NCBI GenBank assembly: GCA_017451915.1
Contig: JAFTNJ010000002.1
Location: 7,357-71,356 of the forward strand
DNA from: Clostridia bacterium
Lineage (GTDB): Bacteria > Bacillota > Clostridia > Oscillospirales > CAG-272
Direction: 5' to 3'
DNA length: 64,000 nt
Under the pieces are notes generated by a model, which did no database searches, was not told the origin of the DNA, and saw only the letters and a list, made by a program, of their open reading frames with translations. Below are positions 20,020 through 25,956 of this stretch, one piece after another. Positions within the stretch are counted from its first letter, which is position 1, and each line of letters begins with the position of its first letter. The translations under genes and the position numbers were made by a program.

Positions 20020-20083
20020 ACTTGTTGACAAGTAAACAAGTTTGTGGTATACTGTTATGGTACTTGTTGAAATTTCAACAAGT
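20020..20083 (+). promoter_or_regulatory. promoter with two palindromic operators sharing an ACTTGTTGA half-site
   Basis: TTGACA 20025-30, 17 nt, TATACT 20048-53. Palindrome ACTTGT-TG-ACAAGT (20020-33) lies over the -35. A perfect 22-bp palindrome ACTTGTTGAAATTTCAACAAGT (20062-83) lies after the -10. Confidence 0.65.
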
Positions 20084-20098: not shown

Positions 20099-20578
20099 AT
20101 GAAGGCACGCTTTGAAACCTTTACCGTGCTGATTGCAAAAATCAGCAGGAATATCCGAAAGATCAAGAACCGGGAAATGGCGGAATACGGGCTCCGCAGT
20201 GCCCACGTTTCCTGCCTGTACTATCTTTATTTGTCCGAGTCTCTCACGGCTACCGATCTCTGCGAGCGTTGTGAGGAGGACAAGGCAACCATCTCCCGCG
20301 CCTTGGATTTTTTAGAGGAGAAGGACTTTATTCTTTGCCAATCCAAGCACGCCAAGCGCTATAACAGCCCGCTCTCTCTGACCGAGAAGGGAAGAACGGT
20401 TGGAAAGCAGATCGTTGATAAGATCAACTGCGTTCTGGACGAGATCTGCAACGACCTGACCGAGGAGCAGCGGCTTGCCTTTTATCACAGCCTGGCCGTG
20501 ATCAGCCATAGCCTGGAGCTTTGCGTGAATGGAATCAGTAAAGCCAAAACAATGAAAAAGACGGATAGCGTCGGATAA
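20099..20578 (+). CDS. MarR-family transcriptional regulator
   Basis: ORF trimmed to ATG 20099 after AGGAG. Winged-helix region LTATDLCERCEEDKATISRALDFLEEKDFI. Confidence 0.8.
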   Translation: MKARFETFTVLIAKISRNIRKIKNREMAEYGLRSAHVSCLYYLYLSESLTATDLCERCEEDKATISRALDFLEEKDFILCQSKHAKRYNSPLSLTEKGRTVGKQIVDKINCVLDEICNDLTEEQRLAFYHSLAVISHSLELCVNGISKAKTMKKTDSVG

Positions 20579-20592
20579 GGAAAGGGAACCCT

Positions 20593-21807
20593 ATGTTTAT
20601 ACTCAAAAAAATCGGATGTCGCATTTTCCAGCTGGCATTCCGTGCCGCGTTGCCGATCCTGCCCTATCGGGAGCCTAAGATTCTGGATTCCTGCGAGGCA
20701 CTTGGCGACGTATGCAAAAGCGAAACGCTTTCGTCGGTGCTTCTGGTCACCGATGCGGGCATTGTGAAGAACGGCTTGACGGCCTTTCCCGAGGCGGTGC
20801 TGAAGAAGCATGGAATTACTTACGCGATCTACGACGGGACCCAACCCAATCCCACGGTCAACAACGTGGAGGAGGCTCTGACGCTGTACCGCAGGCATGG
20901 GTGCCGGGGGCTGATCGCCATTGGCGGGGGCTCGGCCATGGATTGCGCCAAGGCGGTGGGTGCTCGGGTGGCGTATCCCAAAAAGGCGGTTGGCAGCATG
21001 GGGGGAGTTCTGCGGGTGCTTCGCAGGATCCCTACCCTCATTGCCATTCCCACCACGGCGGGAACCGGAAGCGAGACCACCCTGGCGGCGGTGATCACCG
21101 ATCCTGCCACCCATCACAAATACGCAATGATGAGCTTCCCCTTGATCCCCCATTACGCGGTGTTGGATGCCTCCCTTACCTACACTCTTCCACCCCATAT
21201 GACCGCTACCACGGGGATGGACGCCCTGACCCATGCGGTGGAGGCCTACATCGGTCGCTCCACCACTCGAGAAACGCGACGACTTGCCCTGGAGGCCACG
21301 GCACGGGTGTTTCAATACCTCAAGCGGGCGTATGCCAACGGGAGGGATCACGAGGCGCGGGAGCAAATGCTCCACGCCGCTTATCAAGCGGGCGTTGCCT
21401 TTTCCAAGTCCTACGTGGGCTACGTTCATGCCATTGCCCATTCCCTGGGGGGACGCTACGGCACACCTCACGGCCTGGCCAATGCGGTGATCCTGCCCTA
21501 CGTTCTGCAAAGCTACGGCAAGAGCGTGCACAAAAAGCTACACCGTTTGGGCATGGCTGCCGGTGTTTGCACCGCGGCGGATGGCTTTGAGGAGGGGGCA
21601 AGAAAATTCATTGCCGCCATTCGAGAGATGAATGCGGACCTGGGAATTCCCGACGTTCTCACCGGAATCGGGAAGGAAGACATTCCCGCCATGGCACGGC
21701 ACGCCGAGAAGGAGGCCAATCCCCTCTATCCCGTGCCCAAGCTGATGACGCAGGCCGAGCTGGAGTCCTTATATTATCAAATTGCAGATTGGAGAAAAAC
21801 GAAATGA
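20593..21807 (+). CDS. iron-containing (group III) alcohol dehydrogenase
   Basis: Motifs GGGSAMDCAK, TTAGTGSE and histidine-rich metal-site regions (HAVEAY, HAIAHSLGG). Confidence 0.85.
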   Translation: MFILKKIGCRIFQLAFRAALPILPYREPKILDSCEALGDVCKSETLSSVLLVTDAGIVKNGLTAFPEAVLKKHGITYAIYDGTQPNPTVNNVEEALTLYRRHGCRGLIAIGGGSAMDCAKAVGARVAYPKKAVGSMGGVLRVLRRIPTLIAIPTTAGTGSETTLAAVITDPATHHKYAMMSFPLIPHYAVLDASLTYTLPPHMTATTGMDALTHAVEAYIGRSTTRETRRLALEATARVFQYLKRAYANGRDHEAREQMLHAAYQAGVAFSKSYVGYVHAIAHSLGGRYGTPHGLANAVILPYVLQSYGKSVHKKLHRLGMAAGVCTAADGFEEGARKFIAAIREMNADLGIPDVLTGIGKEDIPAMARHAEKEANPLYPVPKLMTQAELESLYYQIADWRKTK

Positions 21808-23186
21808 CGAATCAGGAAATACAGAGTCTGCTGGAAGAGCAGAGGGCCTTTTACCGAAGCGGCGCAACGATTCCCGTCAAATTCCGCGTGGAGCAGCTGA
21901 AAAAGCTCTATGCCGCGGTTAAGAAATACCAAAACGAGATCAACGACGCCCTGACCGCCGATCTTGGAAAAAGCCACTATGAGGGCTTTATGTGCGAATC
22001 GGGACTGGTGCTGACCGAGATCAGCTACATGATCAAGCATACCAAGCGATTTGCCAGACGTAAGACGGTGCCCACCCCTTTGGCGCAGTTTCCTTCGCAC
22101 AGCTACAAGCAGCCCGTGCCCTACGGCAACGTGCTGATCATGAGCCCCTGGAACTATCCCTTCCTTTTAACGCTGGATCCTCTGGCCGACGCCATCGCGG
22201 CAGGAAACACGGCCATCGTCAAGCCCAGCGCGTATTCCCCCGCCACCTCACGGATCGTAGAAAAGATCCTGCGGGAGTGCTTTGCTCCCGACTACGTTGC
22301 CGTGGTGACCGGCGGCAGAGCCGAAAACACCGCTCTGCTGGATCAAAAATTTGATTTCGTCTTCTTCACGGGGAGTCAGGCCGTGGGCAGGGAGGTGCTT
22401 CGCCGCACCGCCGAGCATCTCACGCCCGCCGTCCTGGAGTTGGGAGGCAAAAGTCCCTGCATCGTGGACGCAAGTGCAAATATAGGACTTGCGGCCAAGC
22501 GCATCGTCTTTGGAAAATATCTCAACTGCGGGCAGACCTGCGTGGCTCCCGACTACGTGCTTTGTGAGCGCTCGGTCAAGGACGCCTTTGTCAAGGCCGT
22601 GACCGCCGAGATCCAAAAGCAGTACGGTGCCGACCCGCTGAAGAACAAGGACTACGGTAAGATCATCAACGAAAAGCATTTTGCCCGTCTGTGCGGGTTG
22701 ATCGATGAAAAGAAGGTGGTGGTTGGGGGAAAGACCAACGCGGCTACCTGTCAAATCGCCCCCACGGTGATGGACAACGTCACCTACGAGGATGCCGTTA
22801 TGGGAGAGGAGATCTTTGGTCCCATTCTGCCCATTCTTACCTTCGAGAGCTTCGATGGTGTGGTGGACGGTTTAAAGACGCAGGAGAAGCCCCTGGCCCT
22901 CTATCTGTTTACAAGCAATCCAAAGCATATCAAGCGTGTTACCACCGAGCTGTCCTACGGCGGCGGTTGCATCAACGACGTGGTGATCCACCTTGCCACC
23001 AGTGCCATGGGCTTTGGCGGCGTGGGAGAGAGCGGTATGGGAAGCTATCACGGCAAGGACGGCTTTGACGCTTTTTCTCATTTCAAATCCATTGTGGATA
23101 AAAAGACCTGGCTGGATCTTCCCATGCGCTACCAGCCCTACCGAAGCAAGCTCTACGAAACCCTTTTGCATATATTCCTGAGGTGA
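21804..23186 (+). CDS. class-3 type NAD(P)+ aldehyde dehydrogenase
   Basis: The start ATG 21804 overlaps the ADH stop (ATGA). Motifs ELGGKSPCIVD, catalytic C in GQTCVAPDYVL, and EEIFGPILPI. Confidence 0.85.
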   Translation: MTNQEIQSLLEEQRAFYRSGATIPVKFRVEQLKKLYAAVKKYQNEINDALTADLGKSHYEGFMCESGLVLTEISYMIKHTKRFARRKTVPTPLAQFPSHSYKQPVPYGNVLIMSPWNYPFLLTLDPLADAIAAGNTAIVKPSAYSPATSRIVEKILRECFAPDYVAVVTGGRAENTALLDQKFDFVFFTGSQAVGREVLRRTAEHLTPAVLELGGKSPCIVDASANIGLAAKRIVFGKYLNCGQTCVAPDYVLCERSVKDAFVKAVTAEIQKQYGADPLKNKDYGKIINEKHFARLCGLIDEKKVVVGGKTNAATCQIAPTVMDNVTYEDAVMGEEIFGPILPILTFESFDGVVDGLKTQEKPLALYLFTSNPKHIKRVTTELSYGGGCINDVVIHLATSAMGFGGVGESGMGSYHGKDGFDAFSHFKSIVDKKTWLDLPMRYQPYRSKLYETLLHIFLR

Positions 23187-23189
23187 TCC

Positions 23190-23879
23190 ATGAAGAAATC
23201 GAAAAACATTTTATTGGCGATCAATCTTGTATGCATCGCAACCATTTTTGCACTGAATTACGTTTATCAGAGCCACGGCTTTGATTTTACCCTCAAATGC
23301 CTGTGCAGCGGTCTGTTCGCCCTGCTGGGGTTGATCAATCTGGGCGTTGCCCTGCGGGGAGGGGAACGGTTGCCCTTTTTCCTTGGCATGGCGGCAGGCT
23401 TGGTTTTTGCCTTCCTTGGGGATGTCCTCATTGGATACGATTTTATCGTTGGCGCCGGGACCTTTGCCCTGGGACATATCTGCTTTGTGGTGGCCTATTG
23501 CTTTTTGCAGAGGATGCAGCGATTGGACGTCCTGCTCAGCGGAATCCTGTTCCTTGGAGCAACGGCGTTCCTGCTCTTTTGTCCCCTGCTCACCTTTGAG
23601 GTGGAGATCTTCAAGGTGGTCTGCGTGGTCTACGCGTTGATCATTTCCACCATGCTTGGCAAGGCTGTGGGAAATGCCCTGCGGGAAAGAACCGCCGTTA
23701 CGGTAACGGTAGCCGTGGCGAGTGCGCTGTTCTTCTTCTCCGATCTGATGCTGGTGTTTGACTGGTTCATCGGACGCTGGAGCTGGACCGACCACGCCTG
23801 CATGGGCACCTACTATCCCGCGCTCTGCCTTCTGGCACTTTCCATGTGCCTTCAAATTCGATTTCCGAGAAAGGAGTAA
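23190..23879 (+). CDS. YhhN-family membrane protein (lysoplasmalogenase family)
   Basis: Eight hydrophobic helices with YhhN signatures AFLGDVLI, FALGHICFVVAY and LFFFSDLMLVF. Lies 3 nt after the ALDH stop. Confidence 0.7.
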   Translation: MKKSKNILLAINLVCIATIFALNYVYQSHGFDFTLKCLCSGLFALLGLINLGVALRGGERLPFFLGMAAGLVFAFLGDVLIGYDFIVGAGTFALGHICFVVAYCFLQRMQRLDVLLSGILFLGATAFLLFCPLLTFEVEIFKVVCVVYALIISTMLGKAVGNALRERTAVTVTVAVASALFFFSDLMLVFDWFIGRWSWTDHACMGTYYPALCLLALSMCLQIRFPRKE

Positions 23880-23885
23880 AGATCT

Positions 23886-24725
23886 GTGAAAACCCAAATC
23901 ATTGTAGACTCCACGGCGGATCTGATGCCCGAAATCAAAGGCCGTGTTCGAGTGGTTCCTCTGACCCTCCGTTTTGGAGAGGAGGAATATATCGACGGTG
24001 TTACCATCGATAACAAAACCTTTTATGAAAAGCTCATCGAAAGCGATGTTCTGCCCACCACCAGCCAAGGCACCCCGTATGCCTTTTCCAAGGAGCTGGA
24101 GCAGGTAACGGCGGCCGGTGATAGCGCGGTGGTGATCACCATTTCCTCCAAGCTTTCCGGCACCTACCAAAGCGCAACCATCGCGGCTGCGGAGTATGAC
24201 AACGTTTACGTTGTGGATAGCGGAAGCGCGGCCATGGGAAGTGGGATCCTGGTAGAATTGGCGGTTGAGCTGATGGACGAGGGCCTGGATGCCAAGAGCA
24301 TTGCCGAGCGGCTGGAGGAGGAAAAGAAAAAGATCGTTATTGTGGCTCTGGTGGACACGCTGGAGTATCTCAAGCGCGGCGGTCGGATCTCCAAAACCGT
24401 GGCCTTTGCGGGAACCGTGCTGAACATCAAGCCGGTCATTTCGGTGATCGAGGGAGAGATCCGTATGCTTGGAAAAGCGCGGGGCTCCAAGATGGGGAAC
24501 AATCTGCTGGTGCAGGAGATCGAAAAGGCTGGCGGTGTGGATTTTTCCAAGCCGGTTTTGCTGGGCTACGCAGGACTCTCCGATGCCCTGCTGGTGAAGT
24601 ACATTGAGGACAGTCGGTTCCTCTGGGAGAGGGGGCTGCCGTCGGTTCGCTACACCACCATCGGTAGCGTGATCGGTACCCACGTGGGCCCCGGTGCCAT
24701 CGCCGTGGCATTCTTTAAGAACTGA
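23886..24725 (+). CDS. DegV-family fatty-acid-binding protein
   Basis: GTG start 6 nt after the YhhN stop. Typical DegV N-terminus (IIVDSTADL) and motifs TSQGTP and KLSGTYQSA. Confidence 0.85.
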   Translation: MKTQIIVDSTADLMPEIKGRVRVVPLTLRFGEEEYIDGVTIDNKTFYEKLIESDVLPTTSQGTPYAFSKELEQVTAAGDSAVVITISSKLSGTYQSATIAAAEYDNVYVVDSGSAAMGSGILVELAVELMDEGLDAKSIAERLEEEKKKIVIVALVDTLEYLKRGGRISKTVAFAGTVLNIKPVISVIEGEIRMLGKARGSKMGNNLLVQEIEKAGGVDFSKPVLLGYAGLSDALLVKYIEDSRFLWERGLPSVRYTTIGSVIGTHVGPGAIAVAFFKN

Positions 24726-24747
24726 TCTTCTGCGGTACAATAAACAT

Positions 24748-24794
24748 AGGAGCGTCCTGCGCACGGTTGCAAAGAGGTCGCTCCTTTATTTTTG
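24748..24794 (+). terminator. probable intrinsic terminator
   Basis: AGGAGCG...CGCTCCT stem followed by TTATTTTTG. Confidence 0.5.
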
Positions 24795-24825: not shown

Positions 24826-24879
24826 TTGACATGGCACGGTGGATATGTTATAATAAATTGAACTCAATTGAATTGAGTT
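24826..24879 (+). promoter_or_regulatory. gpx promoter with a 9-1-9 palindromic operator
   Basis: TTGACA 24826-31, 17 nt, TATAAT 24849-54. The perfect palindrome AACTCAATT-G-AATTGAGTT (24861-79) lies between the -10 and the RBS. Confidence 0.65.
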
Positions 24880-24900
24880 ATTATATTATGGAGGTGCGAT

Positions 24901-25440
24901 ATGAACGCATACGATTTCAAGGTGACGCAAAGGGACGGCAGTGAACTATCTCTGGAGACGTACAAGGGCAAGGTATTGCTTGTGGTCAATACCGCCACGG
25001 GATGTGGGTTTACGCCCCAATATCAGGAATTACAGCAGCTCTACGAGGAATTCTCCGCACAGGGCTTTGAGATTCTGGATTTTCCCTGCAATCAGTTTGG
25101 AGCGCAGGCACCGGGGGACAATGAGGAGATCCATTCCTTTTGTACCGGCCGCTTTGGAATCACCTTCCCGCAATTCGCAAAAATCGACGTCAACGGTGAG
25201 AATGCCGCTCCCCTGTATCAATGGCTGACGCAAAATACCGAGTTTGGCGGTTTTGGCAGGTCTCCTATGGCACTGATGTTGGCGGGAGTGGTCAAAAAGA
25301 CCGATAAGGATTATAAGAGCAACGGTAAGATCAAATGGAATTTTACCAAGTTTCTTATTGATCGCAAGGGCGAGATCGTTGCGCGCTTGGAACCGACGGA
25401 AATGAAAAAGCTGCGGGACGCGATCCAAGCCTGTCTGTAA
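24901..25440 (+). CDS. gpx: glutathione peroxidase (Cys-type)
   Basis: Motifs VNTATGCGFTPQY, FPCNQFGAQ and WNFTKFLI. Confidence 0.9.
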   Translation: MNAYDFKVTQRDGSELSLETYKGKVLLVVNTATGCGFTPQYQELQQLYEEFSAQGFEILDFPCNQFGAQAPGDNEEIHSFCTGRFGITFPQFAKIDVNGENAAPLYQWLTQNTEFGGFGRSPMALMLAGVVKKTDKDYKSNGKIKWNFTKFLIDRKGEIVARLEPTEMKKLRDAIQACL

Positions 25441-25518
25441 GGAAATTCCGCGAGGGGACTTGATCATTTTGCCAAACCGTGTTATAATATAAAAAGAGTC
25501 CCACATCGGAGGTGTTTT

Positions 25519-25956
25519 ATGAGTCGATCCCAATACGATGCCTTAAAGCTGGAAAATCAGCTCTGCTTTCCTCTGTACGCCGCCGCCCGCGAGGTGGTAA
25601 AGCAATACCGTCCCTATCTGGACGCCTTGGATCTCACCTATACCCAATATATCACGCTGATGGTTTTGTGGGAGCAGAAGGAGCTGACTGTCAAGGCCCT
25701 GGGAGAGCGGTTGTTCCTCGATTCGGGAACCATGACGCCCGTGCTCAAAAGTCTGGAGGCAAAGGGGTACGTGACTCGCAAACGGAGCGAGGCCGACGAG
25801 AGGTCGGTCCGCGTTCTTCTTACGGAACGCGGCAAGGCGTTGCAAGAGTCTGCCGTGGAGATCCCCCCCAAGGTGGCGGACTGTGTTGGATTGGAGCCCG
25901 GGGAGGCACTTCTTCTTTACGAGCTCCTTTATAAGATCTTAAACCGAACCCAATAA
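25519..25956 (+). CDS. OhrR-like MarR-family peroxide-sensing regulator
   Basis: N-terminal LENQLCFPLYAAAR carries the conserved sensing Cys position. The wHTH region is LTYTQYITLMVLWE...TVKALGERLFLDSGTMTPVLKSLE. Confidence 0.75.
   Translation: MSRSQYDALKLENQLCFPLYAAAREVVKQYRPYLDALDLTYTQYITLMVLWEQKELTVKALGERLFLDSGTMTPVLKSLEAKGYVTRKRSEADERSVRVLLTERGKALQESAVEIPPKVADCVGLEPGEALLLYELLYKILNRTQ

Follow-up and report, generated by a model that had tools for sequence, protein, structure and literature searches.

A MarR-associated operon linking a candidate lysoplasmalogenase of the YhhN family to alcohol and aldehyde dehydrogenases and a DegV protein in a Clostridia genome

The window analysed here is a stretch of 64,000 nucleotides (nt) from the metagenome-assembled genome (MAG) of a gut Clostridia bacterium (GenBank assembly GCA_017451915.1, contig JAFTNJ010000002.1, positions 7,357 to 71,356), and the subject of this work is a five-gene operon within it, encoding a MarR-family repressor, an iron-type alcohol dehydrogenase (Fe-ADH, or ADH), a class-3 aldehyde dehydrogenase (ALDH), a YhhN-family membrane protein and a DegV protein. 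It is highly probable that this operon handles a long-chain aldehyde derived from lipid and salvages the resulting acid. A more specific reading can be given moderate confidence, namely that the operon, under repression by MarR, cleaves lysoplasmalogen, turns the toxic, long-chain fatty aldehyde so released into the acid and hands the acid on for membrane synthesis.

The five genes all lie on the forward strand and code for the MarR-family repressor (159 aa with an ATG start; 20099–20578), the Fe-ADH, which is of group III (404 aa; 20593–21807), the ALDH (460 aa; 21804–23186), the YhhN/TMEM86-family integral membrane protein, a candidate lysoplasmalogenase (229 aa; 23190–23879), and the fatty-acid-binding protein of DegV/FakB type (279 aa with a GTG start; 23886–24725). 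All five proteins exceed the curated Pfam cut-offs of their families, the MarR protein barely so (PF12802 with 29.1 bits against a cut-off of 27, and PF01047 with 26.5 bits). The remaining matches were to PF00465 and PF25137 for the Fe-ADH (E 1e-43 and 4e-47), PF00171 for the ALDH (E 7e-87), PF07947 for YhhN (88.6 bits against a cut-off of 25.6) and PF02645 for DegV (E 1e-70), the last also matching TIGR00762 (255.5 bits against a cut-off of 99.7). The tight coupling of the genes that had been described in the original prediction agrees exactly with the sequence, both in the intergenic gaps of 14, −4 (an ATGA overlap), 3 and 6 nt and in the start of MarR at ATG 20099, and a purine-rich ribosome-binding site precedes every one of the five gene starts. 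The genes form one transcription unit of approximately 4.7 kb, running from a single promoter to a single terminator, and are thus the single operon that had been proposed.

The promoter and two operator-like palindromes occupy positions 20020–20083 of the forward strand and were located by sequence reading and a promoter scan. The promoter, TTGACA-17-TATACT with an extended TG (20025–20053; −35 at 20025–20030, −10 at 20048–20053), has 11 of 12 matches. Of the palindromes, the first (20022–20039, TTGTTGA-N4-TAAACAA) overlaps the −35 element and the second (20062–20083), a perfect palindrome of 22 bp, sits between the −10 element and the ribosome-binding site, this perfect site occurring only once in the 2.2-Mb host genome. 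A pair of TTGTTGA-N4-TCAACAA sites approximately 40 bp apart was present in 24 of 27 related loci possessing a MarR gene, positioned either 5' of MarR or, where a gene for an AMP-binding acyl ligase precedes MarR, 5' of the ligase. Such a layout is the classic arrangement of an autoregulated MarR repressor, and the MarR protein, which reached no NCBIfam equivalog, is presumed to be the autoregulator of the operon. The acyl ligase is found under the same operator pair in five to six species, which would place it in the same regulon as the module. At the other end of the unit is an intrinsic terminator (24748–24794, forward strand; −20.2 kcal/mol, z −2.8), comprised of a hairpin followed by UUUAUUUUU.

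The suggestion of vinyl-ether cleavage depends on the YhhN protein, the operon copy of which is the only YhhN match of the host genome, with a PF07947 match spanning positions 4–181 of 182. Its AlphaFold2 model (pLDDT 94.4, pTM 0.90), built from an alignment that included four ABC-ATPase rows, is a bundle of eight helices (2–28, 33–57, 61–81, 85–106, 111–130, 139–165, 169–194 and 198–224). Among 53 true YhhN relatives, fused forms included, residues G77, H96, S184, D185 and Y208 are invariant, with K36 and D78 conserved in at least 90%. The essential set of the TMEM86A/B enzymes consists of K43/53, G81/87, D82/88, H104/108, G182/175, S189/182, D190/183 and Y213/206, eight proposed positions having been mutagenised of which all except one mattered, and the corresponding cluster of the Mycobacterium tuberculosis protein (MtbYhhN) is K68, D102, H125, D211 and Y234. 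When compared by published numbering and spacing, the operon protein has the same order and spacing of residues as TMEM86A, TMEM86B and MtbYhhN, the distance from D to Y being 23 in all four. YhhN proteins that have been assayed, these being rat and human TMEM86B, human TMEM86A, Lpg1991 of Legionella and Rv1401 of M. tuberculosis, were all lysoplasmalogenases (PMC3137066, PMC9052158, PMC11994398). The operon YhhN, which retains the lysoplasmalogenase residues as would be expected from the original prediction, is regarded here as a candidate for this activity. A profile search of the PDB with YhhN gave a chance match only and no solved YhhN structure, and a prediction of a complex between YhhN and the Fe-ADH, both supplied as alignments, scored 0.00 and was not used either way.

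The association of YhhN with the two dehydrogenases was assessed in a scan centred on YhhN, which took one genome per species and gave 80 loci with YhhN relatives, nearly all of them in MAGs of ruminant or other gut Clostridia. Counts are from a clean re-scan using hidden Markov models, with the loci having enough sequence as denominators. Where YhhN was at least 60% identical, 33 of 39 loci had the ALDH gene directly upstream, the commonest gap being 3 nt, and ADH was present in 27 of 36, MarR, at its conserved position, in 21 of 34 and the ligase in 5 of 28. Within this YhhN subfamily, the linkage to ALDH and ADH that had been predicted is therefore strongly conserved beyond the genome in question. 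The ALDH linkage falls to 3 of 20 loci at 50–59% YhhN identity and is seen again at 38–50%, with the order ADH-ALDH-YhhN in L074, L082 and L083. Other orders were ADH-YhhN (L068, L069, L072 and L080), YhhN-ALDH (G595) and YhhN-MarR-ADH-ALDH (L158).

Gene fusions were also found. A single open reading frame (ORF) of 1125 aa (P0121; L094:8001–11378) joins YhhN, Fe-ADH and ALDH in that order and occurs in two independent assemblies, while a fusion of YhhN with Fe-ADH (639 aa; L195:4743–6659) is encoded in G467, a genome of approximately 1 Mb; P0122 is a truncated YhhN-ADH. These fusions provide the strongest argument that YhhN and both dehydrogenases work on one metabolite stream. As the NAD(P) domains are fused to the C-terminus of YhhN, this terminus and the hand-over of the aldehyde would be cytoplasmic.

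A different conserved neighbourhood was observed for YhhN relatives of 50–56% identity (L056, L061, L063–L067, L070 and L071), containing a PHP-domain protein, a PanE/ApbA-like reductase, a metallophosphoesterase and repeated 370-aa proteins with no Pfam match. Such a setting suggests that YhhN has a second role or set of partners, unrelated to the present one.

Among solved structures, the operon ALDH scores best against 6K0Z, the 4,4'-diaponeurosporen-aldehyde dehydrogenase of Staphylococcus aureus (445 bits; PMC12410373), followed by ALDH3A1 and FALDH 4QGK (402 bits), with a lower score for the benzaldehyde dehydrogenase PpBADH (5UCD, 340 bits). The top solved matches are all ALDH3 and the motifs WNYP, ELGGKSP, CGQTCVAPDY and EEIFGP are intact, in agreement with the predicted assignment of the enzyme to class 3. 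Its nearest solved relatives act on lipophilic aldehydes, and a preference for long-chain aliphatic aldehydes is suggested by the context, namely the DegV and ligase partners and the YhhN fusions. With regard to the Fe-ADH, its GGGS motif (G111–S114) and the residues that bind the metal (D210, H214, H279 and H293) do not vary across 31 relatives, and its nearest solved relatives are enzymes of small alcohols (ethanol, methanol, 1,3-propanediol and lactaldehyde enzymes). The protein also possesses a conserved N-terminal extension (CRxFQxxFRxALPxLPYREP). A role of this extension as a membrane anchor was considered and is not claimed, the motif being conserved with no sign of membrane binding.

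The DegV motifs PTTSQ, SSKLSGT, LKRGGRI and HVGPG align with those of the DegV family protein 2DT8 of Thermus thermophilus, and we take them, from work on FakB of S. aureus, to be fatty-acid- and FakA-binding. The protein scores below the FakB1 equivalog NF038249 (132 against 350 bits). In a tree of DegV proteins, two clades linked to the module lie deeply apart, and both are separate from the housekeeping FakB that adjoins FakA; the first is encoded between ADH and ALDH or 5' of YhhN, and the second, into which the operon DegV falls, 3' of YhhN. One locus (L036) carries DegV proteins of both clades. DegV, for which linkage had been predicted, is a recurrent member of the module and to judge from this tree was recruited at least twice. 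The two recruitments, together with the alternative acyl ligase, indicate that the end product would be a fatty acid for reuse.

Genes capable of receiving such a product are present elsewhere in the host genome. These encode FakA (553 aa with Dak2, FakA-like_M and FakA-like_C domains; C21:41012–42673), adjoined by another DegV (the pair at C21:41012–43537); in all, the genome has three DegV proteins, two PlsY proteins (C12 and C63) and six GDPD proteins, the GDPD enzymes being predicted to be able to use a glycerophosphodiester product. A PlsA-like gene (972 aa; DUF2229 and a pair of BcrAD_BadFG domains) was found with an adjacent ORF of 431 aa (C21:50655–54884). The host MAG, which is 87% complete, gave no match to a ketoacyl synthase (FabF), to FabA/FabZ or to PlsX. 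Based on this gene content, the host is likely a fatty-acid auxotroph living on scavenged lipids, yet one that makes vinyl-ether lipids; acyl-ACP for the sn-2 position would then have to be made without PlsX.

A similar picture was obtained in other genomes. A ketoacyl-synthase match was present in just 6 of 31 members of the host genus, mostly within long ORFs, and was not found in four of five other operon-bearing genomes. For the class as a whole an even sample of 399 Clostridia genomes was used; a FabA/FabZ match was missing in 17 of the 25 sampled genomes whose ALDH shares 60% identity or more with the operon ALDH, compared with 143 of the 399 overall. Many of the FabA/FabZ-positive genomes in this sample had only weaker matches (approximately E 1e-19 to 1e-21). 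Type II fatty-acid synthesis may often have been lost in Clostridia, and given that the host has no FabF/FabZ match and that most genomes with the closest ALDH cassettes have no FabA/FabZ match, scavenging of lipid from neighbours and from the host animal is likely a major selective force in gut Clostridia.

The route that we infer draws on features that can be read directly from the DNA, namely the gene identities, the operon structure, the conserved operators and linkage, the fusions, the conserved catalytic residues and the genes for salvage at other places in the genome; its substrates, the direction of the Fe-ADH, the ligand of MarR and the origin of the lipid are proposed on that basis. 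YhhN, as a membrane hydrolase of eight helices, would cut the vinyl-ether bond of 1-alkenyl lysophospholipids to give a glycerophosphodiester and a fatty aldehyde, the lysoplasmalogen most likely coming from outside the cell (from anaerobes living nearby, or from lipid of the host or the diet). The class-3 ALDH would oxidise the fatty aldehyde to the fatty acid, with the Fe-ADH either reducing surplus aldehyde to the alcohol, a redox-neutral disposal that would suit a fermenter, or feeding fatty alcohols into the route. The dedicated DegV/FakB protein would then bind the acid and present it to FakA, with the acyl-phosphate entering phospholipid synthesis via PlsY. MarR would sit on the two promoter palindromes and be released presumably by a lipid ligand.

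Extending this, it is quite possible, although somewhat less likely than not, that fatty-acid-auxotrophic gut Clostridia cross-feed by a dedicated pathway on the vinyl-ether lipids of others, by means of YhhN physically coupled or, in some lineages, fused to ADH/ALDH, followed by transfer through a specialised FakB clade to FakA. The ADH/ALDH pair would in that case dismutate or oxidise the aldehyde at the cytoplasmic face. If true, this would be the first bacterial pathway of plasmalogen catabolism and salvage, with alkenyl chains as a source of acyl chains in the gut.

A number of results weigh against cleavage of lysoplasmalogen by this operon, among them those on the linkage when viewed from the ALDH. 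In 80 metagenome contigs picked by ALDH similarity (62–82%), ADH-ALDH was present in nearly all, MarR often and DegV sometimes, and YhhN adjoined the ALDH in 2. The original prediction had treated YhhN as the organising gene, a view which is not upheld by the other 78 contigs, where orthologous MarR-ADH-ALDH(-DegV) occurs with no YhhN nearby. The sample of 399 genomes contained class-3 ALDH in 89, YhhN in 41 and both in 21, so that class-3 ALDH was present in 51% of YhhN-positive and 19% of YhhN-negative genomes, figures which overstate the association as the sampled genomes are related and not independent. The two genes were adjacent in 2 of the 21 genomes holding both. Furthermore, 15 sampled genomes, most of them at least 93% complete, possess an ALDH 70–83% identical to that of the operon and no Pfam YhhN match anywhere; when 13 loci from these YhhN-less genomes were fetched, ADH-ALDH was kept in 12, of which 5 had MarR and 7 had DegV.

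The ALDH tree, which combines two differently chosen samples, requires at least 6–10 gains or losses of YhhN adjacency and has a YhhN-less clade nested within the main YhhN-linked clade. As branches of 0.1 or less unite ALDH genes from genomes of five GTDB families, lateral spread is indicated. Of 25 genomes of the host genus, 2 gave a YhhN match, one of these matches being a remnant (L002:974–1084 in G022), a 37-codon 3' piece of YhhN that is 78% identical and is accompanied by neither ALDH nor DegV; this sister species has apparently lost the operon. Sampling of the host order gave YhhN in 12 of 301 genomes, none of them close and with no syntenic relatives, and the close relatives of the operon YhhN therefore belong to other lineages. 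The stable unit is MarR-ADH-ALDH, often with DegV, and not YhhN, which is an optional front end, repeatedly gained and lost, that would supply substrate. Interchangeable additions to the unit are YhhN, DegV and the ligase, joined at a few loci by an Ntn hydrolase or a flavoenzyme with AcnX.

The optional partners observed were a C45/CBAH (choloylglycine-hydrolase-type) Ntn hydrolase and, in other cases, an OYE-type Fe-S flavoenzyme, which is BaiCD/bilirubin-reductase-like, with the large and small subunits of AcnX. They were located at L017:3152–4390 and in L043 (between ALDH and YhhN), and at L004:3553–5622, L039:6762–8036 and L041:3961–4404.

Further points on the same side concern the proteins themselves and the material. 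DegV is present in just 11 of 47 close YhhN loci. The position of G182 in TMEM86A, seven residues before the SD pair, is Ala in the operon YhhN, and the residue match as a whole was made through published numbering and spacing and not by direct alignment to characterised lysoplasmalogenases. The best NCBIfam model of the ALDH is the MdlD benzaldehyde dehydrogenase equivalog NF045701, the cut-off of which it does not reach (430.5 against 550 bits), and the Fe-ADH reaches no substrate-specific NCBIfam cut-off (best 291 against 550 bits). Absences from the host MAG are provisional given its completeness, and all of the enzymology of the operon is deduced from its genes.

Because the cassette mostly occurs without YhhN, its aldehyde need not derive from vinyl-ether cleavage, and the alternative that survives best builds on this. 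It holds that the operon is a general cassette for salvage and detoxification of fatty aldehydes and alcohols from other sources, for example those free in digesta, those of plant waxes or those set free when vinyl ethers are hydrolysed chemically, with YhhN doing something else in the membrane, such as acting on another lipid substrate, taking up or flipping a lipophilic substrate, or acting on a different ether or acetal lipid. The completeness and wide distribution of the cassette without YhhN, even in genomes with no YhhN match, and its pairing with the other optional partners described above are as this explanation would expect, and the YhhN proteins ever assayed number only four or five. 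However, the characterised YhhN proteins, from animals, Proteobacteria and Actinobacteria, share an activity that releases exactly the substrate class of class-3 ALDH enzymes, the essential YhhN residues are kept in the operon protein, and the independent YhhN-ADH and YhhN-ADH-ALDH fusions argue for direct metabolic hand-over. A general cassette of this type is therefore considered unlikely, but it is to be taken seriously.

A second alternative retains the same chemistry as the lysoplasmalogen reading and differs in the origin of the lipid, the operon clearing lysoplasmalogens of the cell's own membrane and recycling the chain, which is the "turnover" sense in which the original prediction had been put. 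The PlsA-like gene of the host and its neighbouring ORF would fit with this. Its likelihood is nevertheless low, as no DUF2229/PlsA match was found in three of the five other operon-bearing genomes (the completeness of which is unknown), most species of the host genus do not possess YhhN, and an inducible MarR together with a patchy, laterally spread distribution is a better fit to an environmental substrate; YhhN of M. tuberculosis provides a precedent for action on foreign lipid (PMC9052158). What stands of the original prediction of a plasmalogen module is the operon, the linkage, the protein families and the residues; YhhN as its core is not upheld, and turnover of the cell's own plasmalogens is not favoured.

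The last alternative, that the operon detoxifies aromatic or short-chain aldehydes of plant or fermentation origin with YhhN and DegV as unrelated passengers, is very improbable, for although MdlD is the best NCBIfam model of the ALDH, the solved relatives of the Fe-ADH act on small alcohols and the stress genes gpx and ohrR adjoin the operon, the MdlD score is under its cut-off with the solved benzaldehyde dehydrogenase ranking below lipid-aldehyde and mammalian class-3 enzymes, the two DegV lineages and the acyl ligase under the same operators point to a fatty-acid product, the fusions are with a lipid-handling membrane enzyme, and gpx-ohrR, which has a promoter to itself, shows no conservation beside the module.

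Next downstream of the operon comes gpx, the promoter of which, at 24826, matches the consensus in 12 of 12 positions; behind gpx lies a gene for an OhrR-like MarR regulator (170 bits, the cut-off being 200), and the two form a separate transcription unit (24826–25956) and their inclusion in the operon was rejected. Also rejected was an antisense ORF of 517 aa (23211–24764, minus strand) lying over YhhN and DegV, as the family matches are all on the forward strand; this frame is an artefact of GC-rich coding sequence.

In anaerobic bacteria and in animal cells alike, plasmalogens account for a large part of the membrane lipid, and their degradation and recycling in bacteria is essentially undescribed. 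The words "degradation" and "lysoplasmalogen" never occur in a 2022 review of bacterial plasmalogens, and the few bacterial YhhN enzymes that have been assayed are without known downstream partners. Full-text literature searches found no paper in which a bacterial YhhN gene shares an operon with DegV or with enzymes that handle aldehydes, in line with the statement of the original prediction that no operon of this composition was known, and no paper was found that gives the genes of Lpg1991 or Rv1401 aldehyde-handling operon partners. Together with its fused relatives, the operon offers a concrete pathway, from hydrolase through aldehyde oxidation or reduction to FakB, in which each step has a candidate gene and for which there is a candidate regulator and a defined operator. 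Should the link to YhhN fail, a widespread MarR-ADH-ALDH-DegV fatty-aldehyde cassette of gut Firmicutes would still need explaining.

All genes of the operon belong to known families. As with Lpg1991 of Legionella pneumophila and Rv1401 (MtbYhhN), its YhhN is a stand-alone protein of approximately 230 aa with eight transmembrane helices, a Lys/Asp/His/Asp/Tyr cluster and a D-to-Y spacing of 23, likened by published numbering and not by alignment, and a role against foreign lysolipids has been proposed there also (PMC9052158). It differs in being accompanied by dedicated ADH, ALDH and DegV genes, where the authors of those papers assume beta-oxidation of the aldehyde, and in its host, which is strictly anaerobic and gives no sign of making fatty acids. 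The closest solved relative of the ALDH, AldH of S. aureus (6K0Z), is likewise a class-3 enzyme from a bacterium and has a long lipophilic aldehyde as its substrate (PMC12410373); it serves in carotenoid pigment synthesis in another gene context, however, and its substrate specificity is not transferable.

The FakA/FakB system of Firmicutes (S. aureus and Streptococcus) is comparable in that the operon DegV belongs to the same fold family with the carboxylate and FakA-interaction motifs, and in that the genome possesses FakA and PlsY. Unlike in that system, the DegV of the operon belongs to a clade apart from the FakA-adjacent FakB, scores below the FakB1 cut-off and is encoded within an aldehyde-oxidising operon.

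The chemistry mirrors that of mammalian plasmalogen catabolism, where PLA2 is followed by the lysoplasmalogenase TMEM86A/B, of the YhhN family, and then by the fatty aldehyde dehydrogenase ALDH3A2. Common to both are the action of a class-3 ALDH after that of a YhhN-family hydrolase, the conversion of the aldehyde to a reusable fatty acid, and the catalytic residues of both families, which are conserved in the operon. In contrast to the mammalian route, there is no PLA2-type gene in the unit and the ALDH is without the membrane anchor of FALDH, while the genes are co-transcribed, fused in relatives and regulated by MarR, with an Fe-ADH as part of the module. The mammalian acid proceeds to acyl-CoA synthetase and beta-oxidation, whereas that of the operon would be passed to FakB and FakA.

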